Part shown: positions 2,234 through 28,810 of the stretch, piece by piece
How positions within the stretch are numbered: position 1 is the stretch's first letter
Layout of the letters: every line of letters starts with the position of its first letter
NCBI GenBank assembly: GCA_021818945.1
Contig: JAKASV010000002.1
Location: forward strand, 721-64,720
Length of the DNA: 64,000 nt
DNA from: a bacterium
Lineage (GTDB): Bacteria; Babelota; Babeliae; Babelales; Vermiphilaceae
Direction: 5' to 3'
Program-made: the position numbers and the translations under genes
The notes under the pieces: model-generated
Told to the model about the DNA's origin: nothing
The model's database searches: none
What the model saw: the letters and a program-made list of their open reading frames with translations, nothing else

Positions 2234-3667
2234 ATGGAGATAACCATGAAAGATATACGTAAACAAACTATTTCGAAGGCAGATTTGCCTTTAGGCCGTC
2301 AGCGAAACAATAGCGAAGTTATAGAGTTTTTTGATGCTCATTGGGCAGTACCAGTTACCGATCAACTGGTACGTATTAAAAAATTAGATGCTGCACTGGG
2401 CAATCGTGCTCAACAGATAAAAGCAATTGCTGTTACCGGAACCAATGGCAAAAGTATTACCATCCATTTGACCAGCAAACTTCTTAAAGAAGAGAGCCTC
2501 AAGGTTGGGACCATGTATTCGCCTCATATTCTAACCTATAATGAACGCTTGGCTATTGGCGAAGAGACTATTTCAAATAAAGAATTTACAGAAATTGCGA
2601 ATGATGTCATCAACGCAGCTGATTCTCTGAACATGAAATGCAACAGCTTTGAACTGCTGACCATGATGGCAATAATTTATTTTGCAAATAGCAAGGTCGA
2701 TGTTGCCATATTTGAAACAGGCAGTAATGACTGTATCGAATTAATGAACATCTGCAAGCCTGTTGTCGTAGCCGTTACACGTGCTATCGATGAAAAAATT
2801 ACCGATGAAACAATAGTTCCAGCTGAACTCATAAAGCATATGCTCTCAATAGTCAATCCTGGAACCCATGTAATTTCTGCCGATCAAAGCAAAATGAATC
2901 TTCAAATGATGCTTGAAATTACCAAGGAAAAAAATGGTACTTGGGCTATGCCAATTCGTAAACTCGCCCAACTTGCTTATCCTTATGAACAACTTCATGG
3001 CCGCTGTGCTGCATTAGCAGAACGTATTGCTGATATTTTCGTCAACACCTTCGCCAATAGAGATGCAGTTGTCGTCAATGATACTTTATTGACCAAGCAA
3101 AAGGGTCAACGTGGACGTCCTACCTTAGAAGCTAAACGTCAGGCCGAATTAAATCCCAAAAGAACTGTAGAACAATTCTGGAAAGATACATGCAATACAT
3201 TGCCTGGCAGGTTCCAACTTTTGGATAAAGAAAAACCAAGCCTTTTACTCGACAACGCAAATAACTTAGATGCCATTAAGAATGTGTTACTTGGTGTTCG
3301 TTTATTGCATTATCAACGCCCTCTAAAAGGGTTGGCCGTTGTTCTTGGTTGCAACAATAAGGATATTGATGTTGAAGGACTCATGCGCGCACTACGCTAT
3401 TTCTTCAAAAAGACATCAGGTCAGGTTATTGTATGCCCAGTTGCAAGTATACCAAGTGATCGTGGCGCTCAGTCTTGGGATATAGAAAAGGTCACTAATG
3501 ATCTTAAGAGCATGAAAATAAAAGCTCGTTCAAGCGCATCATTCAAAGAAGCTTTTGATATTGCCCAGAAGAGTGTAGACGAACGACATGGTCTTGTAGT
3601 CATCACAGGATCGTCAGCGATTGTTAATGAATACTGGAACTACAAAGGTATTAAGAAGATCGTTTAA
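2234..3667 (+). CDS. Mur-ligase family protein, FolC-like (folylpolyglutamate/dihydrofolate synthase-like)
   Basis: It has the P-loop AVTGTNGKSIT, a Mur-ligase central pattern (FETGSNDCIE..VVAVT) and a C-terminal LVVITGS. The start is more likely ATG 2246, which has GGAG upstream. Confidence 0.55.
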   Translation: MEITMKDIRKQTISKADLPLGRQRNNSEVIEFFDAHWAVPVTDQLVRIKKLDAALGNRAQQIKAIAVTGTNGKSITIHLTSKLLKEESLKVGTMYSPHILTYNERLAIGEETISNKEFTEIANDVINAADSLNMKCNSFELLTMMAIIYFANSKVDVAIFETGSNDCIELMNICKPVVVAVTRAIDEKITDETIVPAELIKHMLSIVNPGTHVISADQSKMNLQMMLEITKEKNGTWAMPIRKLAQLAYPYEQLHGRCAALAERIADIFVNTFANRDAVVVNDTLLTKQKGQRGRPTLEAKRQAELNPKRTVEQFWKDTCNTLPGRFQLLDKEKPSLLLDNANNLDAIKNVLLGVRLLHYQRPLKGLAVVLGCNNKDIDVEGLMRALRYFFKKTSGQVIVCPVASIPSDRGAQSWDIEKVTNDLKSMKIKARSSASFKEAFDIAQKSVDERHGLVVITGSSAIVNEYWNYKGIKKIV

Positions 3668-3678: not shown

Positions 3679-3978
3679 ATGCTTACACAGCTTGCATCAT
3701 ATATAGGATCTACCCTTGTAGGCTGTTGCATTGGATTGTTATACGGGCTCCTTTTTATATATCAAAAAAAAGGAGCCCTTTTTCGCGCCAACAAATCCAG
3801 CAGCTTTCAATCATGGATCAATCATATTTTTTCAACTCTAGTTCGTTTTATTGGCGTCGCACTTATAATCTGGTATCTGTTGCCGTTGCCAAAAATCCAT
3901 TTTATACTGGTGATGTTAGGTTTTTTGGTAGTTTTCTGGGTTGTTGTTATTCAGTATAAAGGATATCCCCATGAATGA
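3679..3978 (+). CDS. small polytopic membrane protein, possible AtpI/AtpR-like accessory subunit
   Basis: It is 99 aa with 3-4 hydrophobic helices. It lies immediately upstream of subunit a and is translationally coupled to it (ATGAATGA overlap at 3971-3978). The assignment rests on position only. Confidence 0.35.
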   Translation: MLTQLASYIGSTLVGCCIGLLYGLLFIYQKKGALFRANKSSSFQSWINHIFSTLVRFIGVALIIWYLLPLPKIHFILVMLGFLVVFWVVVIQYKGYPHE

Positions 3979-4729
3979 ATTTGAGTTCGCAGGCGGACAA
4001 ACATGGCATCCTCTGGGTTGGCTCGGACTTACTCATCCGTTTTTTTCCTTAGAATCATCCCAAGTCCATCTCATTGTACAAACATGGATTATTTTAGGCA
4101 TACTTTTTTTACTATGTCTTCCCGTACGATGGCTACTGAAAAAAAAATTCGGCATCCCTCGCTATCTTATCCTTTCGTTCGTGGACACCTTCATAGGCTT
4201 ATGTAAACAGGCGATGGGCACACTCATATTTTCGCACCTTGCATTCGTTACTTCAATTTTTATATTTATTTTATTCTGCAACGTAATCTCAATTGTTCCT
4301 TGGATGGAAGAACCGACATCGAACCCCTACACAACATTTGCCATGGGCATAATCTCATTTTTATATGTTCAATTTAATGGTATTCGTGCTCATGGTATTA
4401 AGGGTTATTTGAAAGAATATATTGAACCATTCTTTGTCATGGCACCGCTTCATCTTATCGGAAAACTTGCAAGCATTATTTCTATGTCATGTCGTCTCTG
4501 GGGAAATATTTTTGGTGGCGCAATTATTACAAATATGTATCAAGGCCTTATCAGAAGCCATCTTATTCTCCAAATAGTAGGCTTGGGATTGGGTCTTAAT
4601 TTTGTGATTCTTTTCTTTTTCGGTCTTTTTGAAGGATTTTTACAGGCATTCGTATTTACTATGCTCAGTTTAACCTACTTGTCTATTGCAATAACGCAAG
4701 AAGAACAAGGACACGGAGCGTCAACATGA
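3941..4729 (+). CDS. atpB: F-type ATPase Fo subunit a
   Basis: A polytopic protein with the subunit-a signature around the essential Arg: SMSCRLWGNIFGGAII (compare RLFGNxxAG). The likely true start is ATG 3971 (MNEFEF..). Confidence 0.8.
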   Translation: MLLFSIKDIPMNEFEFAGGQTWHPLGWLGLTHPFFSLESSQVHLIVQTWIILGILFLLCLPVRWLLKKKFGIPRYLILSFVDTFIGLCKQAMGTLIFSHLAFVTSIFIFILFCNVISIVPWMEEPTSNPYTTFAMGIISFLYVQFNGIRAHGIKGYLKEYIEPFFVMAPLHLIGKLASIISMSCRLWGNIFGGAIITNMYQGLIRSHLILQIVGLGLGLNFVILFFFGLFEGFLQAFVFTMLSLTYLSIAITQEEQGHGAST

Positions 4730-5688
4730 TAGAACTATCTGAATGTTTTCATTATGGAACCATAGCCGGCATTGTAGGACTTAGTTCCTTTGGTGCTGGA
4801 ATCGGGCAAGGACTTACCGGACGCGCTGCTATGCAGGCAATGGATATTCAACCCCAAGCGAGAGGAGACATTGGGCGCAATGCTATCATGGGAATGGCTC
4901 TTATAGATACTGCGTCCATTTTATGTTTAACTATCGCATTCATGATGGTATTTGGTTCGCGAAGCGTCGAAACGGTCCTATACACAAATATTGCTGACCT
5001 TGGCATTCTCTTTGCACTTTCTTTACCGGGATTTGCTATTGGTATAGCCTCGGCTATGCCTGCCCGCGAGGCTTGCCTGGCAATTGCTCGCCAACCATTT
5101 TTTTCAACAAAAATTTCACGCTTTATGCTCATTTGTCAATCGGTCATTCAAACACCCATCATTTTTGGATTTATTATAGCTCTGCTTATAAAAAACGGTT
5201 CCAGCACATGCACTAATGTAATGGATAGCCTGCGTTATGTGGCAACTGGCATTGCTGTTGGCGTAAGTGCTATTGGTCCTATTATTGGACTGGGGATATT
5301 CGCAAAAACAGCTTGCCGTGGTCTTGGTATTAACAGACAATCCTATGCTTCATTGCTGACTCTAACATTTATAAGCAATGCTATTATAGAAACCCCTATT
5401 GTTCTTTCACTTGTTATCGCGCTTGTGTTACTAGGCGTACCCATTGACCCCAATAATGTACTTGATGGTATACGCGTACTAGCTGCCTCAATGTGTGTTG
5501 GTATAGGAACGTTTGGTCCGGGTATCAGTTCAGGACGAGCATCCGCAGTCGCCTGTCATGAAATCGCAAAAAATCCTGCCGTCTATAGTACCCTATCCAA
5601 GGTAAGCATTTTTGCTCAAGGTCTTATCGATACCTGTGCTATTTACGCTTTTTTAATAGCACTTTCAATTTTAATAATGGTAAAATAA
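4726..5688 (+). CDS. fused proteolipid made of four tandem F/V-type c-subunit hairpins (320 aa)
   Basis: There are four repeats of Gly-rich helix, polar loop and second helix. The Gly-rich helices are GAGIGQG, GFAIGIA, AIGPIIGLG and FGPGISSG. The loops are DIQPQARG, ARQPFF, INRQSY and AKNPAVY. The ion-site positions read ALIDTA, SVIQTP, AIIETP and GLIDTC. Confidence 0.75.
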   Translation: MIELSECFHYGTIAGIVGLSSFGAGIGQGLTGRAAMQAMDIQPQARGDIGRNAIMGMALIDTASILCLTIAFMMVFGSRSVETVLYTNIADLGILFALSLPGFAIGIASAMPAREACLAIARQPFFSTKISRFMLICQSVIQTPIIFGFIIALLIKNGSSTCTNVMDSLRYVATGIAVGVSAIGPIIGLGIFAKTACRGLGINRQSYASLLTLTFISNAIIETPIVLSLVIALVLLGVPIDPNNVLDGIRVLAASMCVGIGTFGPGISSGRASAVACHEIAKNPAVYSTLSKVSIFAQGLIDTCAIYAFLIALSILIMVK

Positions 5689-5712: not shown

Positions 5713-6858
5713 ATGAAGCAAAAAGAATCAATGCATGTTGTACACATGATCACGAAGCTGGAAATGGGAGGCGCCCAAAAAGTATGTTTAACCATAAAAA
5801 AAGGTCTTGACAATCAGAAAATTTGGTCGGCTCTTATCTCTGGCGATACAGGCGAATTAGTGAATTGTGCTAGAGACCTACCCAACAGCCTGTTTATTAA
5901 AGAATTGAAAAGAGAAGTTACTGTGCTGGGTGTCTTCAATGAATGCATTTGTTTTTTTAAACTCATTCGCTATTTACGCACATTAAAAAAACAGTACCCG
6001 AATCTTATAATCCATACACACAGTACAAAAGCAGGTCTCATGGGCCGATGGGCTGCATTTTTTGCAGGAATAAAAAAACGAGTACACACTATACATGGCT
6101 ATGGATTTCAACCAGAACAAAATCTGTGTGTTCGCTTTTGTATCTATTGTGTAGAATTAATCACAAGTGCAATTACAACACATTATATTTGCGTATCTAC
6201 CGAAGATGCAAAAAGAGGATCAAAAATATTTCCATGTTTTGGAAAAAAACATTCAATAATCAGAGCTGCTGTAGATTGGAAACAATTTTATTCTCCCGCA
6301 CGAAAACATCAGGCAGTACCATTGTATGATAAGCCTTTTATATTCGGAACTATTGGCGGTCTCTCTTATCGCAAAAATCAGATAGAAATTCTCAAGGCTT
6401 TCAGCATAGTACATTCAAAATATCCGCATGCACGTCTAGAACTTATTGGAGATGGTGACCAGCGGGCTGTTCTCGTGAACTGGATAAATGAACATCAATT
6501 GCAAAATGTGGTAGTACTTCATGGCTGGCAACAGAATGTACTCCCTATCATGCTCAACTGGCATGTCTTTTTGTTAAGCTCTTTATGGGAAGGTCTGCCA
6601 TGTGTTATCGTTGAAGCTCGTTTGTTAAAGTTACCAGTATTAACTTATGCAATGAATGGTGTACGCGACGTTATTTTCCAGGATTATAACGGGTTTATCT
6701 ATAAACAGCGTGATTATCAAAGCATGGCCAATGGCATGATTTCACTTATAGAAAATCCATTACTATACACGAAACTTTCCCAATATCCCGACCAGTTACA
6801 AGATTTTAATGATACCTATATGGTTCATCAACATATAGAATTATACAAGTCTTTTTGA
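5713..6858 (+). CDS. glycosyltransferase family 4 (GT-B)
   Basis: The N-terminus reads MGGAQKV. The C-terminus has the E-x7-E region SLWEGLPCVIVEARLLKLPVL..NGVRDVI..NGFIY. Confidence 0.8.
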   Translation: MKQKESMHVVHMITKLEMGGAQKVCLTIKKGLDNQKIWSALISGDTGELVNCARDLPNSLFIKELKREVTVLGVFNECICFFKLIRYLRTLKKQYPNLIIHTHSTKAGLMGRWAAFFAGIKKRVHTIHGYGFQPEQNLCVRFCIYCVELITSAITTHYICVSTEDAKRGSKIFPCFGKKHSIIRAAVDWKQFYSPARKHQAVPLYDKPFIFGTIGGLSYRKNQIEILKAFSIVHSKYPHARLELIGDGDQRAVLVNWINEHQLQNVVVLHGWQQNVLPIMLNWHVFLLSSLWEGLPCVIVEARLLKLPVLTYAMNGVRDVIFQDYNGFIYKQRDYQSMANGMISLIENPLLYTKLSQYPDQLQDFNDTYMVHQHIELYKSF

Positions 6859-6957
6859 CACTACCGTCTATTGACTTTCTCTCTATGTTAGATAATGTAT
6901 AGAGCGTTCATTCGCTATGTTCATGCAATATGTTCATGAGAAAGTAATTTCTAAGGA

Positions 6958-7752
6958 ATGTTAACTATGAATGCAAAGAATATCCTGCTTTATGCATGCG
7001 TCATTTTTATAATAAGCGGCTATCTCTATCTAGCAATCACCCCTAAAAAAGCCCCGGTAAAACCACAAAAGCCTCTTTCGATAGGTCTTTGTATTATGGC
7101 AACAGGCAAGTATATTCATTTTGCTAATCAGCTTATTCGATCAGCAGAGTATTATTTTTTGCCCGGACATAGACGAACATTTTTCGTGTTCACTGATCAG
7201 ATAGATGCTCTTGAAAAAAATTCTCACATCGTACCCATTTTTCAAAAACGTCTTGGCTGGCCTTATGATACAATAATGAGGTGCGCGGTATATCAAAAGC
7301 ACAAAGAACTTTTTACATCGATGAATTATCTTTTTGCTTGTGATGCAGATATGTTATTTGTTGATTTTGTGGGAGAGGAAATTTTGAGCGACCTTGTTGG
7401 TACACTCCATCCTGGGTTTACCTACCGACGTGGCACGTATGAAAACAATTCACAATCGAAAGCCTATGTAGGAACTGGTGAAGGCAAATACTATTTTGCA
7501 GGTGGTTTTTATGGAGGTTCACGGGAAAGATTTATAGCCATGAATGATTCCTTGACGAGCTCCATTGATCAGGATTTAAAGAAAAACATCGTAGCTATGT
7601 GGCATGATGAAAGCCATCTTAATCGCTATTTTATTGATCATAAACCTACCCGTATTTTAGATACCTCCTATTGTTATTTTGAAGGACGCAGTCTACCAAC
7701 ACCACCCCGCTTGGTTGCATTATATAAAAACAAAACTTATTGGCGCTCATAA
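6958..7752 (+). CDS. glycosyltransferase family 6 (ABO / alpha-1,3-Gal(NAc)-transferase-like) with N-terminal signal anchor
   Basis: Block-by-block resemblance to vertebrate GT6: IGLCIMATGKYIHF, GHRRTFFVFTDQ, FACDADMLF (DXD), GTLHPGF, YYFAGGFYGGS, AMWHDESHLNRYF and HKPTRIL. The start is probably ATG 6967. Confidence 0.85.
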   Translation: MLTMNAKNILLYACVIFIISGYLYLAITPKKAPVKPQKPLSIGLCIMATGKYIHFANQLIRSAEYYFLPGHRRTFFVFTDQIDALEKNSHIVPIFQKRLGWPYDTIMRCAVYQKHKELFTSMNYLFACDADMLFVDFVGEEILSDLVGTLHPGFTYRRGTYENNSQSKAYVGTGEGKYYFAGGFYGGSRERFIAMNDSLTSSIDQDLKKNIVAMWHDESHLNRYFIDHKPTRILDTSYCYFEGRSLPTPPRLVALYKNKTYWRS

Positions 7753-7804
7753 AAATCAGTCTGTTGACTTTCTTGACATGTCATATAGTGTATAGAAAGT
7801 TCGT

Positions 7805-8704
7805 GTGAACCACAGAAAAGAAAGGGCCGTAATGAGGCTCATACAAAAAATAGTGATGTATCTTTTTCTATTAATCGCATGCATAATAATTTTTGTACCA
7901 ATTTTTTTCTTACGTTTAGATCACTATCCCGAAAAACCTATGGTGGTTATTATTCCCTCCTACAAAAACCAGCAATGGATCGATAAAAATTCATCGTCGG
8001 TCTTTAATCAGAAATACAAAAACTATCGTGTCATATATATAGATGATTGCTCACCAGATCATACTTATGAAAAAGCCAAACAGATAAATAACATACATAA
8101 TCAGAGTCACCGAACAACACTCAGACATAACACCAAACGTCAAGGAGCATTGGCAAACTTATATCACGCTATTCAATCATGCAATAATAATGAAATAATT
8201 GTCCAACTTGACGGAGATGATTGGTTTGCTCACGACTATGTATTGGCTTATATCAATTGCATCTATGCAAATCAAGATATTTGGCTCACTTACGGTCAAT
8301 TTCAAGAATATCCTTCTTGCCGCATTGGCCATCTGTATTCTCAACATTTTCCTCAATCAGTCATCAAACAAAATTGTATGCGCAGATACAAAAATCTCCC
8401 TATGTCACACCTGCGGACGTGCTATGCATGGTTATTCAAATTAATTAAAGTGGAAGATTTAATGTATGAGGGTGACTTTTACCAAATGAGCTGGGATAAG
8501 GCTATTCTTGCACCAATGATTGAAATGGCAGCAGATCATTATGCATGTATCTCAGAAATTCTTTATATTTATAATAACTCAAATCCTATAAGCGCCCATC
8601 GCATCGATGTTAATCTACAACATGCATTAGCAGACCATATTGCTCATTTAGAGCCCTATAAACCATTAAGCACTTGCTGGCAAAAAAGGAACTTTCAATC
8701 ATGA
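7805..8704 (+). CDS. glycosyltransferase family 2 (single domain), paralog 1
   Basis: Motifs MVVIIPSYKNQQW..YKNYRVIYIDDCSPDHT..LDGDDWFAH (DXD), with an N-terminal signal anchor. The alternative start is ATG 7832. Confidence 0.75.
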   Translation: MNHRKERAVMRLIQKIVMYLFLLIACIIIFVPIFFLRLDHYPEKPMVVIIPSYKNQQWIDKNSSSVFNQKYKNYRVIYIDDCSPDHTYEKAKQINNIHNQSHRTTLRHNTKRQGALANLYHAIQSCNNNEIIVQLDGDDWFAHDYVLAYINCIYANQDIWLTYGQFQEYPSCRIGHLYSQHFPQSVIKQNCMRRYKNLPMSHLRTCYAWLFKLIKVEDLMYEGDFYQMSWDKAILAPMIEMAADHYACISEILYIYNNSNPISAHRIDVNLQHALADHIAHLEPYKPLSTCWQKRNFQS

Positions 8705-10185
8705 AATTCACCATACTACATCTATGCTGGATATCATTATGTATGACCTGTTATACATTAGAAGCTGAAGATAATCATCTATCCCAAAAACCTATGGTCG
8801 TTATTATACCATCCTACAATAATCAACAATGGGTCGAAAAGAATCTGACCTCAGTTTTTAAACAGCAATATGATAATTATCACATCATATACATTGATGA
8901 TTGCTCGAGTGACGGAACCTACGCAATTGCGCAAAAAATCACGCAACAGTATAAACAACAACCTCGCACTACGATTATCCGTAATACTGAAAGATATGGA
9001 GCAATGGCAAACTTGTATACTGCCATTCACTCATGTAATGATACTGACGTTATTGTTACTCTTGATGGTGACGATTGGTTCGCACATGACCAGGTATTAA
9101 ACAAACTTAATAGTTACTATGCGCGCGATATATGGATGACTTACGGTCAATTTCAAGAATACCCAACAAATCGAATAGGTCATTGTATTCCTTTTCCTGA
9201 AGAGATAATAAAAAATAATGGCTTCCGGACTTTTCACACAAACAGATCAGTGTTACCAGCCTCACATTTGAGAACTTTTTATGCCTGGCTTTTTAAATCT
9301 ATTCAATTAAAAGATCTTCTGTATGAAGATTATTTCTATACCATGGGCTGGGATATTGCATTCATATGTCCATTGCTTGAAATGGCTGGCACTCGTCATC
9401 AATGCATTGATGACGTACTTTATATCTATAATATAATAAACCCACTCAGTGATTGTTATAGAAATGCAAGTCTCCAATTGCGTTTGGCTCAGTATGTTTT
9501 GAATCAACATCCATACAATCGACTTGATACCATAAGCTCTCTAGAGACTTTTGATAAAGATGATCGGACTAGTCTTATTCTTTTGGCTACACAAGGATTA
9601 TCAAACATATATACACTGCTTACAGATGTCTACACGTCAATCAAACCGCTCACAACACTCTCTTTGCTCTATGATTCAAGCTATGAAGATATACATACAT
9701 TGGACAATCTATCTTCCCTATTCCCTTCTGTGAGTGTTAAAAGCTACAATAAAGAATCGTTTAAAAATATTGTAGAGAAATGTATTAATGTGGCTACAGA
9801 AAACTATATTTTCTTGGCAACAGACACCATGACTATACGCGACTCTATCAATTGCACAGCCAGTATACGCGCACTCAAAAAAAGTCATACAACCGTCTAT
9901 TATTGTGCGTTGGCAAAGAAAAATACGATGTTGTTTGCTCAACCACATCTAGCACCAGTCAACAGTGATCATTCTGTATATGCCTGGTATAGCAATAATA
10001 AAAAAGGAACATGGGTTATTCCGACAATCGATGGAACATTATGGAAAAAAAGAGATCTACAAAAATTACTCACTTCATGCTCATATTACACCCCTGACGA
10101 ACTACGCACCAGTCTACACGATCAGGTCATTAACGGTCGACTTTTAGGTCTTGTCAATATAGATGCAAAAATTATAAGGAACTAA
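8701..10185 (+). CDS. two-domain glycosyltransferase (GT2 N-domain plus C-terminal extension), paralog 2
   Basis: Motifs MVVIIPSYNNQQW..IIYIDDCSSDGT..LDGDDWFAH. ATG 8701 overlaps the upstream stop (ATGA). The ORF-track TTG at 8674 is unlikely to be the start. Confidence 0.75.
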   Translation: MKFTILHLCWISLCMTCYTLEAEDNHLSQKPMVVIIPSYNNQQWVEKNLTSVFKQQYDNYHIIYIDDCSSDGTYAIAQKITQQYKQQPRTTIIRNTERYGAMANLYTAIHSCNDTDVIVTLDGDDWFAHDQVLNKLNSYYARDIWMTYGQFQEYPTNRIGHCIPFPEEIIKNNGFRTFHTNRSVLPASHLRTFYAWLFKSIQLKDLLYEDYFYTMGWDIAFICPLLEMAGTRHQCIDDVLYIYNIINPLSDCYRNASLQLRLAQYVLNQHPYNRLDTISSLETFDKDDRTSLILLATQGLSNIYTLLTDVYTSIKPLTTLSLLYDSSYEDIHTLDNLSSLFPSVSVKSYNKESFKNIVEKCINVATENYIFLATDTMTIRDSINCTASIRALKKSHTTVYYCALAKKNTMLFAQPHLAPVNSDHSVYAWYSNNKKGTWVIPTIDGTLWKKRDLQKLLTSCSYYTPDELRTSLHDQVINGRLLGLVNIDAKIIRN

Positions 10186-10186
10186 C

Positions 10187-11590
10187 ATGCGCAACAGTCT
10201 CATTTTTCTGTTTTGTGTGTTAACTTATATGGCTGTGTTTCATGTTCAACTGATTGCTTACGAAAAACCAATTGTTATTTTGGTGCTGGCTTATAACCAT
10301 GAAGATTTCTATGAGCGGAATCTCAACTCGATCATAAGCCAAAAATATGAAAATTATCGGGTAATCTTTATTGATGATTGCTCTTGCGATAACACATACT
10401 ACCATGCTAAAGCATATTGCGCTGATCAAAAGATCTTATCACGCATCAAGTTTATTCGTTCAGAATCACATCAAGGTCCTATTTCTCATATGTATCGTGA
10501 AGTACAAAAATGCAAAGATGATGAAATAATTGTCTTTATTGCAGGCTGTGACTGGTTTGCAGATTCTCAGACTCTCTCTATCATCAATAGCCACTATTGC
10601 ACGTCTGATATATGGCTCTCATATGGTGCTTATACCTGTTATCCCCATGACAACCATTCGACTATGGCAAAAACACTGAAAAGCTCTATGCAAGAACTTT
10701 GTACTTGTTATGCATGGCTTTTTAAAGAGCTTAAACTCGAAGACCTATTGAATAATCATATATTCTATACTTTAGATTGGAACTCAGTAATAACTGAGCC
10801 ACTCAAACGATTGGCTTGCACCAGATGCCGCCCAATTAAAACCATTTTGTATGTTCGTAATACAAGCAACACGATACTAAGACCCGTACAATCAGACAAA
10901 CCTATAAGCTGCCCCCTTAATAATTATATCCCCATTCACCAGCCACGCATCAAAAAATCAAGCACAGAGCCTGAGGCAAGTATACTTATATTTTCAACAG
11001 ACCCATCACATCTTGTACCTCTACTTGTAGGCATAAAGGGTTATCTATTTCATCATGCGGCCATAGACATAGTGTATCCTGCAGACGTGCAAACTGATGC
11101 GGCCTACCAAACTCTTATCGCAAAATTTTCATCTATCAACTTTATACGTTATGAGACGCACAATTTTAAATCTGCTTTAACACGATATATAGAACAGGTA
11201 CCATATACCTATATAATGCTATCCAATGACACTTGCAAGCAAATCTCACCTGTAGACCTACAGATATGCACACAGGCTCTTAATAATACAAATCTTGATA
11301 TTTTTTATTTACCAATTGGGCGCATCATATGCCCCTATGGAATGGCATTGTCTCAAGAAATCGCATGCATCGATACAGGCAATCAGATATACGCCTGGGC
11401 AAGTTCAAACAAAAATGGACATTGGCTATTGCCGATTCTTCAAATGACATTATTTTCAAAAAGCTATCTTAGCAATGTCCTCGATACCGCACGAGTAAGT
11501 AGCCCTGAAGACCTTCATATCTTGCTACATAGAACTATTGTACAAGAAAATAAATTAGGACTTATGTTTGATCAGATGAAGGTCATTTAA
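10187..11590 (+). CDS. two-domain GT2-like paralog 3 with a degenerate DXD
   Basis: It has the same architecture (ILVLAYNHEDF..VIFIDDCSCDNT), but the DXD position reads IAGCDWFAD instead of LDGDDWFAH. Confidence 0.65.
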   Translation: MRNSLIFLFCVLTYMAVFHVQLIAYEKPIVILVLAYNHEDFYERNLNSIISQKYENYRVIFIDDCSCDNTYYHAKAYCADQKILSRIKFIRSESHQGPISHMYREVQKCKDDEIIVFIAGCDWFADSQTLSIINSHYCTSDIWLSYGAYTCYPHDNHSTMAKTLKSSMQELCTCYAWLFKELKLEDLLNNHIFYTLDWNSVITEPLKRLACTRCRPIKTILYVRNTSNTILRPVQSDKPISCPLNNYIPIHQPRIKKSSTEPEASILIFSTDPSHLVPLLVGIKGYLFHHAAIDIVYPADVQTDAAYQTLIAKFSSINFIRYETHNFKSALTRYIEQVPYTYIMLSNDTCKQISPVDLQICTQALNNTNLDIFYLPIGRIICPYGMALSQEIACIDTGNQIYAWASSNKNGHWLLPILQMTLFSKSYLSNVLDTARVSSPEDLHILLHRTIVQENKLGLMFDQMKVI

Positions 11591-11602
11591 AAGGAACTCA
11601 CA

Positions 11603-12553
11603 GTGGATTGGCATAAAATTTTTCGATCGTATACAAGCCTTGTCGCTATCGTATATATCGTTATAGCATTGCAACTCTATAATCATGCCTTGAACAGTTC
11701 TCGTTCACTACTTTCTATTGACCTTTCATTGCAAACCGTTGACCTCATTATTTTTTCATTTGATCGCCCATTACAACTGTATGCTCTTCTTGAATCAATC
11801 GAGGTTCATCTTACAGGAATCGAAAGAACAACAGTCATCTATAGATCAAGCAATGAGCATTTCAATGACGCTTATGTAACCGTAAAACAACGATTCCCTG
11901 CGGTGATATTCCTGAAACAATGCACACAGCCAGCTTACGATTTTAAACCGCTAATTCTGCAAGCCGTTAGATCCGGAAAAACTCCCTATATCTGCTTTGC
12001 TGTTGATGATCTGGTGGTCAAATTATCAGCAGATCTGAGAATGGCTACGCAAGCTCTTTGTAAGTATAATGCCTATGGATTTTTTTTACGCATGGGAACT
12101 CATTTGACTGCCTGCTATACAGAAAATCAAGATCAGCCGCTCCCTTCATTAACACCCCTTTCTGATTCCATGCTATCGTGGACATTTAGCGATGGAAAAT
12201 GTGACTGGAACTATGCCCATACAGTCGATATGACTATATACCGCAAGCAGGATCTTATTACACAACTGATGACTATGGATTATGCAAACCCTAATCGGCT
12301 AGAAGGAATCTGGGCTCGGTATGCTCGGGCACAAAAAAATAAAAAAGGTATCTGCTTTGCAGATTCTGCAGTAGTTAATATCCCCTGTAACAGAGTACAA
12401 GAAGTCTGTCATAATCGACATATGAACTCCTGGTCGACGGAGCAGTTGCTCGAAAAATTTAATGCAGGTCTTAAGATTGATATTCATTCTTTATATGGGA
12501 TTAAAAATGAATCATGCCATATTTCTTATCCACTCACATTTATCGCTCGGTGA
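11603..12553 (+). CDS. stand-alone homolog of the C-terminal domain of the two-domain GTs (putative GT-A-like)
   Basis: DLIIFSFDRPLQLYALLESIEVHL and ICFAVDDLVV parallel SDMIIFTHNRPEKLALFLESIRSQM in the C-half of the 12558..14087 product. It has a GTG start with AAGGA upstream. Confidence 0.5.
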   Translation: MDWHKIFRSYTSLVAIVYIVIALQLYNHALNSSRSLLSIDLSLQTVDLIIFSFDRPLQLYALLESIEVHLTGIERTTVIYRSSNEHFNDAYVTVKQRFPAVIFLKQCTQPAYDFKPLILQAVRSGKTPYICFAVDDLVVKLSADLRMATQALCKYNAYGFFLRMGTHLTACYTENQDQPLPSLTPLSDSMLSWTFSDGKCDWNYAHTVDMTIYRKQDLITQLMTMDYANPNRLEGIWARYARAQKNKKGICFADSAVVNIPCNRVQEVCHNRHMNSWSTEQLLEKFNAGLKIDIHSLYGIKNESCHISYPLTFIAR

Positions 12554-12557
12554 TCGA

Positions 12558-14087
12558 ATGAAAAAAGTTTGTGCACTTTTTGTATTCGTTACTCTGTTAT
12601 CTCACATGACTCTTCTTGGTGCTAACCAGGGCACCCAGGACACCACTGAAAAACCACTTGTCATTCTTATCACCAGTTATAACAACAAAGATTGGTACCA
12701 AAAAAATCTTGATGCGATCTTTAACCAAAAATATAGCAACTATCGTGTGATTTATATCGATGATTGTTCAGAAGATGGAACAGCTGATCTTGTTGACAAG
12801 TATGTCCATGAACTCAATCAACAAGATCGTGTCAGTATTATAAAAAATAAAACACGACACTTTAAAATGAATAATCTGTGGCATGCTATACATATGTGCC
12901 AGGATAATGAAATTATCATTGAGTATGACGGAGATGATTGGTTTGCGCATAATCAAGTATTGCAGCGTATCAATGACGCCTATAAATCTGATATCTGGCT
13001 CACCTATAGTAATTTAGTTTCTTGGCCCAACGGTAAATCAGGCCCCAACACCACTATTCCACAAGATATTATAGATACAGGAGAATTTAGAAAATTTAAC
13101 GGTTGTTTTTGGTCCATGTTGCGCACCTTTTATGCATGGCTTGCCAAAGAAATCGCCCTCAAAGATCTATTATACGAAGGACAATTTATGACTCGCACAT
13201 CAGATGTTGCCATTATGTTTCCTATGATAGAAATGGCAGGCGATCGCTTTGAATATATTCAAGAACCACTATATATCTACAACGTACAAACTGCTCTTAA
13301 CGATTCAAAGGTAAACCCAGTCTTGCAAAAACGTCTTGAACTCCTATTACGCAGAAAACCATGCTATCCTAAAGCAACTTCTTTCCACCTTCATAAAGAA
13401 TATGAACAAGCAAAATCTGACATGATTATTTTCACTCATAACAGACCTGAAAAATTGGCACTTTTTTTAGAAAGTATCAGGTCCCAAATGCAAGGTCTAG
13501 ATTCGATCTATGTATATATAAGATCCTACAACTCTGATTCTTATACAAACATAATTGATGCATTTAATAAAAAAAAATCTCCTCAAATTCAAATGTATAC
13601 TATCAGACAAGACCATGAGTCATTACTTACTGCAGTAGATAACTCAAAAAATTGTTATATTGTCATTGCCCACGAATATGACTGTGTTATTGATACCATA
13701 GAAATTCCTCAATGCATCAAAGAACTTGAAAAAACAAAAGCCTATGGGTTCTATATGACACTACCTAATCCAAGAACAGTTTCGGGAACTACACCTTTTA
13801 TTGAGATTGATGAAAATATTGTTGCATGGCAATTCGCATTTGGCACAGATAGATGGGCACACCCTCTGAGCAGTTCATTAACATTGTATAAAAAAGAAAC
13901 AATTATAAATGCAATTAAAAGATTAGAACAGAACAATCTTGATCAATTGGCATTATTGGGATGCCAGTCAACTGCAGCTGATGATGATATCGGTCTTTGT
14001 TTTTGTACACCTAAAGCTTTAGATACTCATCTATTAATGGATATCATTGCCGGACAATCTGGAACTTTCAGATTTATTAACTGGTAA
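12558..14087 (+). CDS. two-domain glycosyltransferase (GT2 N-domain plus C-domain), paralog 4
   Basis: Signal-like N-terminus MKKVCALFVFVTLL, then LVILITSYNNKDW..VIYIDDCSEDGT..YDGDDWFAH. The ORF-track start at 12462 overlaps the previous gene, and ATG 12558 follows its stop. Confidence 0.75.
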   Translation: MKKVCALFVFVTLLSHMTLLGANQGTQDTTEKPLVILITSYNNKDWYQKNLDAIFNQKYSNYRVIYIDDCSEDGTADLVDKYVHELNQQDRVSIIKNKTRHFKMNNLWHAIHMCQDNEIIIEYDGDDWFAHNQVLQRINDAYKSDIWLTYSNLVSWPNGKSGPNTTIPQDIIDTGEFRKFNGCFWSMLRTFYAWLAKEIALKDLLYEGQFMTRTSDVAIMFPMIEMAGDRFEYIQEPLYIYNVQTALNDSKVNPVLQKRLELLLRRKPCYPKATSFHLHKEYEQAKSDMIIFTHNRPEKLALFLESIRSQMQGLDSIYVYIRSYNSDSYTNIIDAFNKKKSPQIQMYTIRQDHESLLTAVDNSKNCYIVIAHEYDCVIDTIEIPQCIKELEKTKAYGFYMTLPNPRTVSGTTPFIEIDENIVAWQFAFGTDRWAHPLSSSLTLYKKETIINAIKRLEQNNLDQLALLGCQSTAADDDIGLCFCTPKALDTHLLMDIIAGQSGTFRFINW

Positions 14088-14113
14088 ATCGTACCCTCAA
14101 TGTTGAGCATACA

Positions 14114-15448
14114 TTATGAACCCAAAAGATTAAGAAGCACGCGATTATAGATAAGTAATATACAAAAATAAGAACCATATGCAATTGCCATTGCGCCTAT
14201 ACAACCGGAAAGTCCATAGCAAGGGATTAATAATAAATTTAGTACACTATTGATTAATACTGCTACCGCTAACGCAGCAACAAAAATCCAGCATTTTTTT
14301 TGAAATTGAATGAAATTAGATACAAAATAGGAGCCAATGAGAAATATATAACTTACTAAGATACCAAGAATACAACCCACTGCTTTTTCATACCGAACCG
14401 GAATAATCCAATAAAGCATAGAACGAAACAAAAAATAACCAATGAAAGATACCATTATCAAGCTGCAAAGTACGAGTACCATAATGCGATGATTAGATCT
14501 TTCTATCTCTTTGATCGGTCTCACTGACGAACCATATGAATTCAATAATGCAGGACCATAAGCCCCTTGTAAAGGATAGACTATAAAGCGATAAAAAAGC
14601 TGTCCACCAGCATCAGCGACTGCAAAAACCCCTGCAACTTCCATCCCTGCATACTTTGCGACCATCCAGCGATTAAGCATCGCAAAAAGCCACCCAACTA
14701 TCATACTAGGTAAAAAAGGAATACCCAGTTTAAGATTATGGGCATATCGTCCGGTAAGATTCGTACAATGAAAAGTCTTATACAGTTGACAGTTACAATA
14801 TAAAAAGAGCCCAACTGAAAAAACAACAAAAACCATAAAAAATTGTATCCAAATAATGCTTGCAACCCCCCAGTGAAAATAGCCAACAGATACAACATTA
14901 AAGAGAGCAGTAAGCAGTGCCACAGTAAGCTGCATAGTTGTTACTGTTACTGCATACCTATGGTATTGTAATATTTGAAACATTATGTCATTAAAAAAAG
15001 AAAACAAGCAGATTAACAAAATTGCATATATCAGTATCGATTGGTGCATCGGCAAAAAAAGGTACTGGTAAATAAAGTGAGGGTACAATGCACACAGCAC
15101 TACTAGGGGCACTGCACTCACAAGATAAGTACCAATGATGTTGTTGATCACCAGGCTCCGATCTGAATCTGATGAACGAAAATAATCAACCATAAGTACC
15201 TGTGGCAAGCCCAGTCCAAGACATGCTATAGCAACATTATTGAAACTATGAATTAATGAAAGCAGACCATAATCGGCTGGACTTAAAAGCAGCATCATAA
15301 GGGGAGCCATAATAACCGAAATACTGCTCAAAACTATTTTGCCTGCAGTGTATACAAAAAAATGAGCGACTACTGATAAAGGCAACCGCTCTTTAACTGC
15401 CAAGCGAAGTTCTCGTACAGCCCACATACCTACTCCCGCTAAGATCAT
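14114..15448 (-). CDS. polysaccharide/oligosaccharide flippase (MOP/Wzx-like), polytopic membrane protein
   Basis: It is 444 aa with roughly 12 or more hydrophobic helices and sits at the end of the GT cluster. The family assignment comes from topology and context. Confidence 0.55.
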   Translation of the reverse strand: MILAGVGMWAVRELRLAVKERLPLSVVAHFFVYTAGKIVLSSISVIMAPLMMLLLSPADYGLLSLIHSFNNVAIACLGLGLPQVLMVDYFRSSDSDRSLVINNIIGTYLVSAVPLVVLCALYPHFIYQYLFLPMHQSILIYAILLICLFSFFNDIMFQILQYHRYAVTVTTMQLTVALLTALFNVVSVGYFHWGVASIIWIQFFMVFVVFSVGLFLYCNCQLYKTFHCTNLTGRYAHNLKLGIPFLPSMIVGWLFAMLNRWMVAKYAGMEVAGVFAVADAGGQLFYRFIVYPLQGAYGPALLNSYGSSVRPIKEIERSNHRIMVLVLCSLIMVSFIGYFLFRSMLYWIIPVRYEKAVGCILGILVSYIFLIGSYFVSNFIQFQKKCWIFVAALAVAVLINSVLNLLLIPCYGLSGCIGAMAIAYGSYFCILLIYNRVLLNLLGS

Positions 15449-16925: not shown

Positions 16926-19754
16926 ATGGCCATGGTTAAATATATTTCAGCTCTATGCATGTTAGCTTTGCTATCACTAAAACTTGAAGCAATGAGCCTT
17001 CTTAATATTTACAATTCATCTCAAGACACCCCAGTTTACTACAAAATCGGTGATGAACCTTGGGATGTTTTAGATGGAAACAACTCTAGTGCGATGTGGC
17101 AAGTCCCTTGTAACGGATATACTTTTATAAGATTTTCAGCCAATCAGCAAGGATCGCGACCTACTTACTTCGTATTGCCTCCACAACTACCATACCAACA
17201 GGCAGAGCCTGATGATGACTCAGCTGGCAGCAGTACAATGAACTGCGTTATCCAAGTCCACATAAGTGCCATGGCAGGGAAAGTCATAATTGCTCCGCAA
17301 CAAGAAGGACCTGTCGCAGGACAAACAACCTCTGGGCTCTCGTTGGAAAATAATATTACCGCCGCAATCATTGAGCAGTACGTGTCCTTGGCGGAAGCTA
17401 TCGCTTCCATTCAAGTACCTTCAAAAGATCCGGATTCTGTTGCTGCCGACCAAGCGCCGGCACCTTCCACACAAGCAGTCAGCACCGAGCAATCAGAAGA
17501 AAATTCTATTAGAAGCATGTGGAAATCTATACGTGCGTTTCTACCAGCAGACAAAAGCCTTACCTCGACCATTACGAGTTATATGAAGAATATCCTAAAA
17601 AATCATGAAGATTTCATGGATGGAATTGAAGGAGATCTTTCTGCTATCCTTGCAAAATGGCAAAATATCTTATTGGAAAATGCACCTGCAGCAACTGCTT
17701 GGTCAAAACTAACGCCAGTACAAAAGTTATTTTACTTAAAACTATTTGTTTTTATGAATTCAATTAAGAAAACTACAAAAACCCTGGTCATCACGGACGG
17801 TTCTCAGGTAGACACCTCAGCCTCCCTCATGCCCCCACATACACCTCCTGTAACAGATATTAAACTTGATCTTAAAGTTTTCCCTAAAAGCATTTTGTTA
17901 AAAACACAGCCTTCCTGGTTAACTTCTTGGTTGTCAGAAACTGGATACACAAAAAAAGGCAGGATCTTGCACGCATTATGGGACGATGTGGTCGAAATAA
18001 AAAATTTTATTTATGGCGATCCGAAGATTCCATATTTTCCCAATTTACTAGCTACTAATCAATTAGTTATGCCAAAGGATTTGACAGCTCAAGCGTTTTA
18101 TAAAAAATTGATGCATGACAAGGTCATTTTAATAACATTCAGACAGGCAACTATTGGATTGACCATAAACGAGACGTATGCTCACGAGCCCCCCTATTTG
18201 CGACATGAAATGGATCACTTAATTAAGCAAAACGATCATTTAATTGATCATGTCACTCAACTATGTCGTATCAAGTTAATACCTTTAGGGAACTTTGCAG
18301 TTGACATGGAGGCAGAGCGCAAACAAAGACCGGAAGAAGATACTATGACCCGATTTGCTAAATTTTATTTACGTAATCTGCTTTCCTCCACAATAAGCCC
18401 TTTTTTAAAGCTCACGTTAATCGCCTTCTGGGGCGGAGCCGATAATACTACATTTACTTTTCAGTCAGGTAAAACTCAATGGAAATTTTCATCAGAAATA
18501 ATAGATTCAGCAAAAGCTTGCGCTGAACAACATGCCAAATTAAGTTCAATCAAGGGAAAAGCGCCTGCTGACTCCGCTTCCCCAAGCGACGCTCCCGCTG
18601 CATCTCCAGGAGCACTATTACTACCTGCTGACTCAGCTGCTACTTACACAAGCGGTGCCCCAACCACAACTTCAGGAGCACATTTACTACCTACTGATGG
18701 TTCTCCAAAGGCTAGTCAAGCAGATGTGGCAGCTTTGATGCTTGATCAAAAAACTGATTTAGGAACAGAAATAATCGATCAAGTAGTTGATCTTGTAGCA
18801 ACTGGAAAATCTGGATCGTATATTGTTGATGCTACACCTGAATTGATACACAATAATCTAGCTCAAGCCGCCACATTCCTTGCAGCAAAAGCAACAATGA
18901 TAGATGCTGAGGGTGGCAATAGTACATTGGCACAAGAATTGTTGCTGCATGCTCAATATGCTGCCGATTGCTTTAAAACCTTCCATACATGCATGTCAAA
19001 AAAAGCAGGAGAAAAATTAAGTGGTATCGCTAAACATAGTCCATTTTTGCAAATTTTACAAAATTTACGTGATGGTCATGCAACAAAAAAAGAAAAAAAT
19101 GCTGACATTGCTGATACTAAATATAGTGGCATTGTACAAGAATGGTGTGCTTATATAGGGTGTAAATCTGGCGATCTAGCTTTTGACATATTAACTGTCA
19201 TACTGTTACACAAGGCCGGCGCTGGCACCTCGGGAACAACTCCACCTGCTGCAGCAACTGCAACTGGTGGCGCCGGTACTTCGATGGCTGTTGCAACATC
19301 AATTGCCGATGGAGCTATTGTCATTGTAGATAGCGTTAAAGTTGGTATGGCAATGGCATCTGGGCCAAAGGATGCAGACGGGTCTGGCTCAGATACAAAA
19401 ACGCCTGATATAACCGATAAAGTAAGTTCTTCACTATCCGCTGATGATTTAGCCGAAATAAATAAAGTAAAAATTATTTCAAAAGACGATTTACCACATA
19501 TTTTTAGAAATAAGATCGGTCACTTTATTGATAACACGGAAGCTAACCGGCAATTATTGATAACAACTGCCTCAGATTCAAAAAATTTTTTAGGAAAATG
19601 CGAAAAGGGTTCATTTTGGTATGCTAGAGTTTTGACAGATGATACTCAAATTTGGGCTGAAGTTAGAAATGGTAAAATACGAAATGGCGGCCTTAATTTG
19701 ACCCCAAAAAATTTTAATACAAAAACAGGGCTTAAAAAGCATATTAAATCTTAA
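16926..19754 (+). CDS. secreted polymorphic-toxin-like protein: signal peptide, unassigned N-terminal region, conserved pre-toxin segment, variable C-terminal tip A
   Basis: AAGGAAG RBS and signal peptide MAMVKYISALCMLALLSLKLEA. Ala/Pro/Ser/Thr-rich linkers are present. The 3' 600 bp recurs downstream (see repeats). The tip after GPKDAD is unique (..DLPHIFRNKIGHFIDN..WAEVRNGKIRNGG..). Confidence 0.7.
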   Translation: MAMVKYISALCMLALLSLKLEAMSLLNIYNSSQDTPVYYKIGDEPWDVLDGNNSSAMWQVPCNGYTFIRFSANQQGSRPTYFVLPPQLPYQQAEPDDDSAGSSTMNCVIQVHISAMAGKVIIAPQQEGPVAGQTTSGLSLENNITAAIIEQYVSLAEAIASIQVPSKDPDSVAADQAPAPSTQAVSTEQSEENSIRSMWKSIRAFLPADKSLTSTITSYMKNILKNHEDFMDGIEGDLSAILAKWQNILLENAPAATAWSKLTPVQKLFYLKLFVFMNSIKKTTKTLVITDGSQVDTSASLMPPHTPPVTDIKLDLKVFPKSILLKTQPSWLTSWLSETGYTKKGRILHALWDDVVEIKNFIYGDPKIPYFPNLLATNQLVMPKDLTAQAFYKKLMHDKVILITFRQATIGLTINETYAHEPPYLRHEMDHLIKQNDHLIDHVTQLCRIKLIPLGNFAVDMEAERKQRPEEDTMTRFAKFYLRNLLSSTISPFLKLTLIAFWGGADNTTFTFQSGKTQWKFSSEIIDSAKACAEQHAKLSSIKGKAPADSASPSDAPAASPGALLLPADSAATYTSGAPTTTSGAHLLPTDGSPKASQADVAALMLDQKTDLGTEIIDQVVDLVATGKSGSYIVDATPELIHNNLAQAATFLAAKATMIDAEGGNSTLAQELLLHAQYAADCFKTFHTCMSKKAGEKLSGIAKHSPFLQILQNLRDGHATKKEKNADIADTKYSGIVQEWCAYIGCKSGDLAFDILTVILLHKAGAGTSGTTPPAAATATGGAGTSMAVATSIADGAIVIVDSVKVGMAMASGPKDADGSGSDTKTPDITDKVSSSLSADDLAEINKVKIISKDDLPHIFRNKIGHFIDNTEANRQLLITTASDSKNFLGKCEKGSFWYARVLTDDTQIWAEVRNGKIRNGGLNLTPKNFNTKTGLKKHIKS
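19203..19379 (+). repeat. conserved pre-toxin segment, copy a (inside the main gene; long form 18777..19379)
   Basis: It encodes GTSGTTPPAAATATGGAGTSMAVATSIADGAIVIVDSVKVGMAMASGPKDAD. Confidence 0.9.
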
Positions 19755-27441: not shown

Positions 27442-27465
27442 ATATAAAGCATTATTCCTGGCAAT

Positions 27466-27613
27466 CGGGAACAACTCCACCTGCTGCAGCAACTGCAACT
27501 GGTGGCGCCGGTACTGCGATGGCTGTTGCAACCTCTATTGCCGATGGAGCTATGGTCATTGTAGATAGCGTTAAAGTTGGTATGGCAATGGCATCTGGGC
27601 CAAAGGATTGCAG
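27466..27613 (+). repeat. conserved pre-toxin segment, copy e (+T lesion)
   Basis: Same core; reads ..GPKDCR* with an extra T at about 27609. Confidence 0.9.
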
Positions 27614-27723
27614 ATAAGACTGACACAAGCTGAGCAAGCTCAGGGCCTGACGGGGATGCGGGTACAAGCGCTTCGGCAGGCAGCGACAAGAATTCAAGCA
27701 AGAGTCATCCTGTAGCAAATAAT

Positions 27724-28008: not shown

Positions 28009-28017
28009 AACAAGGCA

Positions 28018-28686: not shown

Positions 28687-28697
28687 TTCAGTCGCTG

Positions 28698-28810
28698 ATG
28701 GCGCCGGTACTTCGATGGCTGTTGCAACATCAATTGCCGATGGAGCTATTGTCATTGTAGATAGCGTTAAAGTTGGTATGGCAATGGCATCTGGGCCAAA
28801 GGATGCAGAC
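28698..28810 (+). repeat. conserved pre-toxin segment, copy f (short, in frame)
   Basis: GAGTSMAVATSIADGAIVIVDSVKVGMAMASGPKDAD. Confidence 0.9.

Follow-up and report, generated by a model that had tools for sequence, protein, structure and literature searches.

The stretch of DNA considered here, 64,000 nucleotides (nt) of contig JAKASV010000002.1 from assembly GCA_021818945.1 (hereafter ‘the window’), comes from a bacterium of the phylum Dependentiae (GTDB lineage Babelota, family Vermiphilaceae). According to the open reading frame (ORF) listing, positions 3679-5688 hold three tightly packed ORFs on one strand, which encode a small AtpI-like membrane protein, subunit a of an F-type ATPase and, within a single polypeptide of 320 amino acids (aa), four fused c-subunit hairpins; we refer to the last of these as ‘c4’. 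The features of the locus are as follows.

3679-3978, plus strand: small AtpI-like membrane protein, 99 aa; weak match to PF03899; overlaps the a gene by 8 nt
3971-4729, plus strand: F-type ATPase subunit a, 252 aa; PF00119; alternative TTG start at 3941
4493-4495, plus strand: Arg175 codon (CGT) of subunit a, the stator arginine; aligns with E. coli R210
4726-5688, plus strand: c4, four fused F-type c hairpins, 320 aa, eight transmembrane helices; four matches to PF00137; TIGR01260
4726-4965, plus strand: c4 hairpin 1, aa 1-80; D61 codon 4906-4908, Q28 codon 4807-4809, loop Q42-P43
4966-5205, plus strand: c4 hairpin 2, aa 81-160; blank site Q142, codon 5149-5151; canonical loop R122-Q123-P124
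5206-5445, plus strand: c4 hairpin 3, aa 161-240; active site E222, codon 5389-5391; T223 and P224 conserved
5446-5685, plus strand: c4 hairpin 4, aa 241-320; active site D302, codon 5629-5631; T303 and Y307

We place the start of subunit a at the ATG at 3971, as set by the gene callers on an identical NCBI contig (GCA_027404975.1), the ORF listing giving instead the TTG at 3941; the start codon of c4 overlaps the stop codon of subunit a as ATGA. The 99-aa ORF matches ATP-synt_I (PF03899) weakly, with E=0.002 and under the Pfam cut-off, and we call it AtpI-like, a function suggested by its position only. Subunit a matches ATP-synt_A (PF00119) with E=3.6e-36 and 125 bits (cut-off 34), and falls slightly below the cut-off of TIGR01131 (98.9 against 102.6 bits); its residues S171, R175, N179 and Q225, which correspond to S206, R210, N214 and Q252 of the E. 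coli protein, are invariant across all 81 of the 81 Dependentiae a subunits compared.

Architecture and conservation of c4

Four separate stretches of c4 match ATP-synt_C (PF00137), with E=6.4e-29 and 100 bits (cut-off 24), and the protein also scores 56 bits with TIGR01260, above that model's curated cut-off of 44. The assignment is to the F-type family, in that NF009998 gives 113 bits, whereas V-type K models reach at most 44 bits against cut-offs of 188-211; the cut-offs of the alternate F1F0 enzymes (N-ATPase; TIGR03306 / TIGR03322) are likewise not reached, subunit a scoring 86 against 302 bits and c4 79 against 131. Each hairpin aligns without a gap to the c subunits of E. coli, I. tartaricus, Bacillus PS3 and spinach, an alignment that puts D61, Q142, E222 and D302 of hairpins 1-4 at the position of the ion-binding carboxylate (E. 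coli D61 / I. tartaricus E65). In place of the canonical single hairpin of ~8 kDa there is thus a 320-aa protein of four, and, by profile and alignment, c4 is a derivative of the c subunit rather than a canonical c. An AlphaFold2 model, built from a 38-sequence alignment, has eight long helices, with a predicted local distance difference test (pLDDT) score of 92.7 and a predicted template modelling (pTM) score of 0.90.

The hairpins are mutually 25-30% identical, which makes them about as distant from one another as the c subunits of different phyla; to judge by its sequence, c4 is a natural and ancient hairpin fusion. They differ also in their cytoplasmic loops, with the full RQP motif in hairpin 2, QP in hairpin 1, N-R in hairpin 3 and N-P in hairpin 4. 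In the c subunit of E. coli the RQP loop is the docking site for F1, to which the central stalk docks.

These matches bear out an earlier note, made from the letters of the window, which had described a subunit a that keeps its essential arginine (PF00119 at E=3.6e-36, with R175 standing for E. coli R210) and a 320-aa protein of four c hairpins with D, Q, E and D at the key position (four PF00137 stretches in gapless register with solved c subunits); the profile check of c-subunit origin that it called for gave a positive answer with both PF00137 and TIGR01260.

Homologues of c4 number in the hundreds, are full-length and 50-100% identical to it, and wherever a source is named it is Candidatus Dependentiae or Babeliales. 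When 1.84 billion cluster representatives were searched exhaustively with HMMER, at least 149 clusters (50% identity) came back with E<1e-30, nearly all of 310-325 aa and aligned end to end, down to an identity of 28%; the weaker matches of the same search include four- and five-hairpin proteins with other site patterns. Among the loci collected from GTDB species, every one with an informative label is assigned to Dependentiae, Babeliales, TM6 or Chromulinivoraceae, while many metagenome-assembled genomes (MAGs) bear no label but "uncultured bacterium" and some are labelled Pseudomonadota, a label that we assume to be wrong.

Residue frequencies were counted in 118 full-length close homologues, in which Q142, E222 and the R122-Q123-P124 loop are invariant (118/118). 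The other two key positions vary between the two carboxylates, with two exceptions: position 61 is Glu in 96 and Asp in 22, and position 302 is Asp in 98, Glu in 18 and Ser in two. A Thr directly follows the key residue in every one of the four hairpins, and Y307 of hairpin 4 is invariant in the 38-sequence alignment. Position 28 of hairpin 1 (Glu in 87, Gln in 31) co-varies with position 61, the pairs being E/E in 87 sequences, Q/D in 22 (the clade of the window), Q/E in nine and E/D in none; the E/E pair resembles the two-carboxylate Na+ motif of Fusobacterium nucleatum.

A wider survey of hairpin 2, across 83 GTDB species loci, found Gln at the key position in 70, Met in four (a group that includes a locus titled Chromulinivoraceae), Val in one and Glu in five. 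Among the Glu group are the four loci of lowest c4 identity (L081-L084), and these have Glu in all four hairpins. The simplest reading of this pattern, taken from the residues themselves, is that the fusion came first and that one site was lost afterwards.

Could the fused c and its Gln site be degenerate remains of an ATP synthase on its way to being lost? The setting would suit such decay, in that the genomes are reduced and parasitic, one carboxylate has gone and the operon is broken up. The conservation of the protein tells heavily against it: c4 is kept at full length in at least 149 clusters down to 28% identity; catalytic and loop residues are invariant position by position; conservation is highest in the blank hairpin 2, which is on average 66% identical to its orthologues in other species, the range over the four hairpins being 57-66%; and neither truncations nor frameshifts occur among the 83 species loci. 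We give this explanation next to no credence; a and c4 are instead, to go by the distribution of their invariant residues, working genes under position-specific constraint and not decaying copies.

The rest of the enzyme

Profile searches of its ORFs found no gene for alpha, beta, gamma, b, delta or epsilon anywhere in the 64-kb window, and tblastn with E. coli AtpD and Babela AtpG gave zero matches, either in the window or in 1.5 Mb of Dependentiae loci centred on c4; the latter result shows that these genes are not adjacent to c4, and is not proof of their absence. A scan of viral contigs with c4 gave no match, and one with an AtpD alignment hit four unrelated contigs only.

The missing subunits are on record for two members of the phylum. 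In the supplement of PMC4378268, Babela massiliensis and TM6SC1 each have one gene for AtpA, AtpD, AtpG, AtpC, AtpH and AtpB (COG0356 = 1, a single a gene each) and none for NtpA or NtpB; AtpF is counted once in Babela, and this b gene is unrecorded for TM6SC1, the rest of whose F1Fo set is as in Babela massiliensis. The annotation table of the same paper lists the Babela counterpart of c4 as gene_637, "AtpE", a protein of 320 aa with eight transmembrane helices and E/Q/E/D at the key positions. It is adjoined by AtpB, an 84-aa membrane ORF (gene_639), FolC and a pilin gene, which is the gene order of the window. The Babela AtpG gene is solitary and lies 193 kb from c4.

With Babela gamma as the query we recovered 665 gamma homologues, of which the named ones belong to Dependentiae, save for one labelled Novosphingobium. 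On two long contigs, each taken, from its identical length, as the chromosome that also bears c4, gamma lies ~72 kb (OY970169.1; 1,417,897 bp) and ~1 Mb (OY969428.1; 1,733,188 bp) from c4. In five out of five contexts, Babela included, gamma stands alone, in a conserved slot after rpoBC, ribosomal-protein, nusG, secE, tsaE and yacP genes; in four metagenomic contigs murA lies just 3' of it, and ankyrin genes often come next. The solitary genes in these contigs are the following.

L089:10001-10843: solitary gamma gene, Dependentiae
L091:10001-10816: solitary gamma gene, Dependentiae
L093:10001-10921: solitary gamma gene, Dependentiae
L094:10001-10855: solitary gamma gene, Dependentiae

The atp operon, then, is broken up across the phylum Dependentiae. 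Some bacteria do split their atp genes, as with the separate Fo and F1 operons of alphaproteobacteria, and there too the Fo genes lie apart from those of F1 and one enzyme is still assembled. The Dependentiae arrangement differs in that the a-c4 pair is on its own, gamma is solitary in a ribosomal-protein neighbourhood, and b is not with a and c.

Babela and TM6SC1 have no a gene other than the one that adjoins c4, and the a-c4 pair is therefore most probably the Fo of a single F1Fo. We put at roughly 0.78 the probability of the reading that follows from this, namely that a and c4 form the membrane sector of the organism's single F1Fo, that the c4 ring carries three sites and a blank, and that the enzyme works as an ATP-driven pump. 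Dependentiae are described as being without an electron transport chain, as having ATP/ADP translocases, and as possessing an ATP synthase that has been proposed to run in reverse (PMC4776705, PMC6561590).

The synteny sample, to which the counts below refer, is made up of 84 c4 loci in genomes assigned to Dependentiae, Babeliales or TM6 (scanning a single genome for each GTDB species gave 80). Subunit a is encoded directly 5' of c4 in 83 of them, the remaining locus being a truncated contig; the a stop and c4 start codons overlap by 4 nt (ATGA) in 28 of 82; and a positional equivalent of the AtpI-like ORF is detectable in 36 of the 84 Dependentiae loci. Outside this core, a folC-like gene lies 5' of the pair in 73 of 84 loci and a family 4 glycosyltransferase (GT4) gene 3' of c4 in 53 of 84, which makes the common gene order folC-like, atpI-like, a, c4, GT4. 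In the window these neighbours are:

2234-3667, plus strand: folC-like Mur-ligase gene, upstream neighbour; TIGR01499 folC, E=2e-43
5713-6858, plus strand: GT4 glycosyltransferase, downstream neighbour; PF00534, E=3e-29

The best promoter-like site in the region lies at 2040-2067, 5' of the folC-like gene, with a score of 11/12 that reflects a consensus match only; the GT4 gene begins 24 nt past c4, and a terminator scan found no terminator-like site between the two. A relative (GCA_942491305.1) has an extra 320-aa ORF between the folC-like gene and atpB (L003:8190-9152), which matches nothing in Pfam and is not c-like by tblastn.

The same neighbourhood is what might suggest that a and c4 make up a stand-alone module, a passive or repurposed ion conductor or a rotor without F1, for F1 and stalk genes are never adjacent in the 84 loci and the conserved folC-like and GT4 neighbours are unrelated genes. 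We regard this as very improbable. Babela and TM6SC1 encode F1 and stalk genes, have no V-type genes and keep their sole a gene beside c4; gamma is widespread in the phylum and occurs on the same chromosomes as c4; the canonical RQP loop is invariant in hairpin 2; and an F1 without any Fo would be left partnerless. The earlier note had correctly reported, as the searches of the 64-kb window confirm, that no F1 or stalk genes are adjacent and that glycosyltransferases follow downstream. Of the two explanations it offered, that the other subunits are encoded elsewhere in an unusual split agrees with the Babela and TM6SC1 gene counts and with gamma on c4-bearing chromosomes, while that of a stand-alone, reduced or repurposed rotor/stator fails on the sole a gene beside c4 and the F1 genes present in the same two genomes. 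We also rejected a further candidate, the pair as a degenerate duplicate: no second full set with its own a and c was encountered, and Babela and TM6SC1 have no other a gene.

The note had further remarked that the organism encodes an ATP/ADP translocase, which the window does not bear out: no TLC domain was found in its ORFs of at least 150 aa, even at E<=1 for eight large ORFs that lack a Pfam match. For the phylum, translocases of COG3202 are nonetheless recorded, in three copies in Babela and three in TM6SC1 (PMC4378268). In its other content the window fits an intracellular parasite: it encodes a Fic protein, proteins with ankyrin repeats and a type IV pilin, carries an IS21 element and has many ORFs that match no family; it holds no tRNA gene, and Rfam gave no match at gathering score.

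Several side observations concern the rest of the window. Directly 3' of c4 lies a glycan-synthesis cluster (5713-15448), with the GT4 gene, a glycosyltransferase of family 6 (PF03414, E=1e-48), which is known chiefly from animals, and four paralogous GT2 genes that share a C-terminal extension; the other strand carries a Polysacc_synt flippase. The stretch 26773-31967 is occupied by four paralogues in tandem (222-230 aa, 65-93% identical, no Pfam match), and a segment of the 942-aa ORF at 16926-19754 recurs at 87% identity in the ORF at 25693-26763. Mobile elements are represented by an IS21-type element on the minus strand (20947-23218), comprising an IstB-like ATPase and a transposase with rve and Mu-transposase C domains, and by an HTH_Tnp_1 transposase fragment at 313-612.

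Composition of the rotor

Whether c4 builds the ring by itself depends on whether an ordinary c subunit exists beside it, and tblastn found no single-hairpin c ORF outside c4 in 1.68 Mb made up of the 84 c4 loci, six gamma loci and the window. That c4 is the sole c subunit, forming a homo-oligomeric (c4)n ring, seems to us somewhat better than an even bet.

The closest known system is an F-type one. The best match of c4 in the PDB, by sequence and by fold, is chain J of 4BEM, the c1 subunit of Acetobacterium woodii, followed by E. hirae NtpK and eukaryotic V-ATPase c/c''; the solved chains cover about half of c4 at most (query-side TM-score <=0.44). Like c4, c1 belongs to an F-type enzyme and is a c gene product of more than one hairpin, with one Glu hairpin and one Gln hairpin; the Gln of its second hairpin is in register with Q142, within ‘AVAQTTGIY’ in c1 and ‘SVIQTPIIF’ in c4. 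The two differ in that c1 has two hairpins and one site, and c4 four hairpins and three sites. The atp genes of A. woodii form one operon, whereas those of Dependentiae are scattered. In A. woodii one copy of c1 shares the ring with nine single-hairpin c2/c3 subunits that are encoded beside it (PMC9171764), and no such single-hairpin genes were found near c4. Multi-hairpin c subunits that have lost sites lower the ion/ATP ratio (PMC9171764, PMC2359735).

V/A-type proteolipids (E. hirae NtpK, eukaryotic c/c'', and those of M. jannaschii and M. kandleri) resemble c4 in hairpin multiplication, often with carboxylate loss, and in fold, with target-side TM-scores of 0.75-0.86. They differ from it in family, since c4 scores with the F-type models, it is paired with an F-type a (PF00119) and Babela and TM6SC1 lack V-type A/B genes. 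They differ also in hairpin number: the natural proteolipids given in reviews have 1, 2, 3 or 13 hairpins, all of A/V-type, to which A. woodii c1 is added (PMC9171764, PMC2359735), and a four-hairpin unit is missing from these numbers. Nor did we find, in the open-access literature, a paper that discusses a four-hairpin F-type c or a fused c of Dependentiae.

Covalently linked hairpins can form a working rotor ring, as the engineered c2 to c10 fusions of Bacillus PS3 have done, the genetically fused c10 among them being functional (PMC8809890). These fusions are artificial, made of identical repeats with short linkers, whereas the Gln in every fourth hairpin of c4 is a natural and conserved state. 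Engineered c dimers and trimers of E. coli were reportedly described by Jones & Fillingame in 1998.

A natural parallel occurs in a family of Desulfobacterota MAGs (2410 matches), in which 4, 5 or 6 hairpins are fused (322-326, 402-408 and 481-490 aa, respectively) in a c gene directly after atpB. These proteins have Glu in hairpin 1 only and Gln elsewhere, in motifs such as QTPxIF that are similar to those of c4, and are annotated in the database as ‘ATP synthase F0 subunit C’ only. The following loci hold complete F1Fo operons, in the order atpZ, an ORF, a, the multi-hairpin c, an 82-83-aa c, b', b, delta, alpha, gamma, beta and epsilon.

L095:8688-17324: complete F1Fo operon, Desulfobacterota
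L096:8705-17067: complete F1Fo operon, Desulfobacterota
L097:8672-17562: complete F1Fo operon, Desulfobacterota

The Desulfobacterota genes, embedded as they are in complete canonical operons, show that F-type c subunits of several hairpins are genuine parts of F1Fo enzymes. Among themselves the hairpins of these proteins are 41-53% identical, as against 25-30% in c4, and are therefore recent duplications. Compared hairpin by hairpin with c4 they are 23-35% identical, with a weak diagonal; in view of these figures we claim no common origin for the two, and c4 and the Desulfobacterota proteins are, on present alignments, probably independent in origin. Further multi-hairpin c proteins came to light as P0366 (434 aa), P0320 (411 aa), P0370 and P0373, among them one with five hairpins and Glu in all five, and some with four hairpins and one carboxylate, the other hairpins having Ser or Gln.

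These parallels also raise the principal alternative to a ring of c4 alone: a hybrid rotor, in which c4 would be a minor part of a mixed ring composed mostly of ordinary single-hairpin c from another locus, on the pattern of Acetobacterium woodii (c1 plus c2/c3) and Desulfobacterota. A. woodii c1 is after all the best PDB match of c4, the Desulfobacterota genes for 4-, 5- and 6-hairpin proteins always precede one for an 82-83-aa c, and the scattering of Dependentiae atp genes makes an unlinked c gene conceivable. Against this stand the lack of any single-hairpin c ORF within 10 kb of c4 in the 84 loci, near gamma or in the window; the position of c4 directly behind a, often with overlapping stop and start codons; and the sites themselves, of which c4 retains three out of four, and four out of four in its most divergent lineages, whereas subunits of hybrid rotors retain one. 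On balance we consider a hybrid rotor unlikely, though clearly the most serious of the alternatives.

Several points weigh against the reading of the a-c4 pair as the Fo of a single F1Fo with three sites and a blank, and against a ring of c4 alone. First, alpha, beta, delta, epsilon and b are documented through the COG table of Babela and TM6SC1 and not for the window's own organism. Secondly, the same table gives two members of COG0636 (c) in Babela, as a hybrid rotor would lead one to expect, and none in TM6SC1 (PMC4378268); these counts look unreliable, being inconsistent with one another (zero for TM6SC1 despite its a gene) and standing at zero also for several genomes with known c subunits. 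Thirdly, the closest analogues of c4 use hybrid rings. Fourthly, a single E56Q substitution in the fused Bacillus PS3 c10 abolishes ATP synthesis (PMC8809890), and a ring in which every fourth helix is blank would therefore need compensating adaptations; by analogy, we would expect a ring with 25% blanks to be adapted to hydrolysis-driven rotation, or to be tolerant of neutral helices in the manner of A. woodii.

Finally, the ion-site chemistry of c4 is heterogeneous, with Na+-like and H+-like features mixed. The Na+ motif of c rings consists of Gln/Glu32, Glu65 and Ser/Thr66, with Thr67 and Tyr70 in support (PMC3692424, PMC2359735), and F. nucleatum has a two-carboxylate variant of it (PMC3692424). 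Of the Na+-like features, the Thr after the key residue is present in all four hairpins, the Q/E at the Q32-equivalent position in hairpin 1 only, and the supporting Tyr (the position of I. tartaricus Tyr70) in hairpin 4 only. On the H+-like side are Asp at two of the three carboxylate sites of the window's c4 and Leu at the Q32 position of hairpin 3. If anything, the two Asp sites would lean towards H+ as the coupling ion.

Mechanism and meaning

Bringing these findings together, we propose, as the most likely mechanism, a model for an enzyme whose Fo is the a-c4 pair. Several c4 chains would together close a ring of 8, 12 or 16 hairpins, in other words a multiple of four, in which three of every four outer helices carry an ion-binding carboxylate (D61, E222, D302), and the Q142 helix, always blank, has to go past the stator Arg175 with no ion on it. 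Gamma and epsilon would dock on the cytoplasmic loops, the canonical RQP being present in hairpin 2 only, such that ATP hydrolysis in F1 rotates the ring past Arg175 of subunit a. One full turn would then move 6, 9 or 12 ions, which amounts to 2, 3 or 4 ions per ATP for rings of 8, 12 or 16 hairpins, as compared with 2.7, 4 or 5.3 if a quarter of the carriers were not missing. We suggest that the enzyme spends ATP imported from the host on pumping ions, and so energises the membrane; pumping is the expected direction because Dependentiae import ATP and have no respiratory chain. Fewer ions per ATP would allow a steeper gradient, or a larger ion-motive force, to be attained, as has been argued for V-type c subunits (PMC9171764). 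The gearing logic would be the same as that of V-type proteolipids and A. woodii c1. Gene content, hairpin architecture, conservation, synteny and the occurrence of F1 and stalk genes at other sites in genomes of the phylum are observed; that c4 alone makes the ring, how many hairpins the ring has, which way the enzyme turns, how its gear ratio has changed and which ion it couples to are what the model infers.

The composition of the rotor ring sets the ion-to-ATP gear ratio of rotary ATPases, and a long-standing view holds that synthases became dedicated pumps once the c hairpin had been duplicated and ion sites had then been lost, for which the natural cases are nearly all V/A-type, plus one F-type (A. 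woodii). Here, a phylum of energy parasites has a four-hairpin F-type ring subunit with one blank, and four-site relatives are available for comparison; c4 thus offers a system in which to test how the stator arginine passes neutral helices. It also constrains the stoichiometry of the ring (8, 12 or 16 hairpins) and predicts that the membrane is energised from stolen ATP. For genome surveys the locus carries a caution, in that scattered atp genes make operon-based calls of an "incomplete ATP synthase" unreliable in this phylum.

Should c4 prove to be the sole c subunit, its homo-oligomeric ring would be the first F-type rotor to combine three properties: a natural gene fusion would restrict the number of hairpins to multiples of four; the ion/ATP ratio would be cut by a quarter through a fixed blank site; and the ancestral state (Glu in all four hairpins) and the derived states (Gln, Met and Val in hairpin 2) would both be living in one phylum that is restricted to hydrolysing imported ATP. 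The arrangement would have evolved inside the F-type family, separately from V-type enzymes, with the single-site c subunits of 4 to 6 hairpins in Desulfobacterota as a parallel case, and Dependentiae would thereby provide a natural test of the idea that hairpin fusion together with carboxylate loss turns a synthase into a pump.

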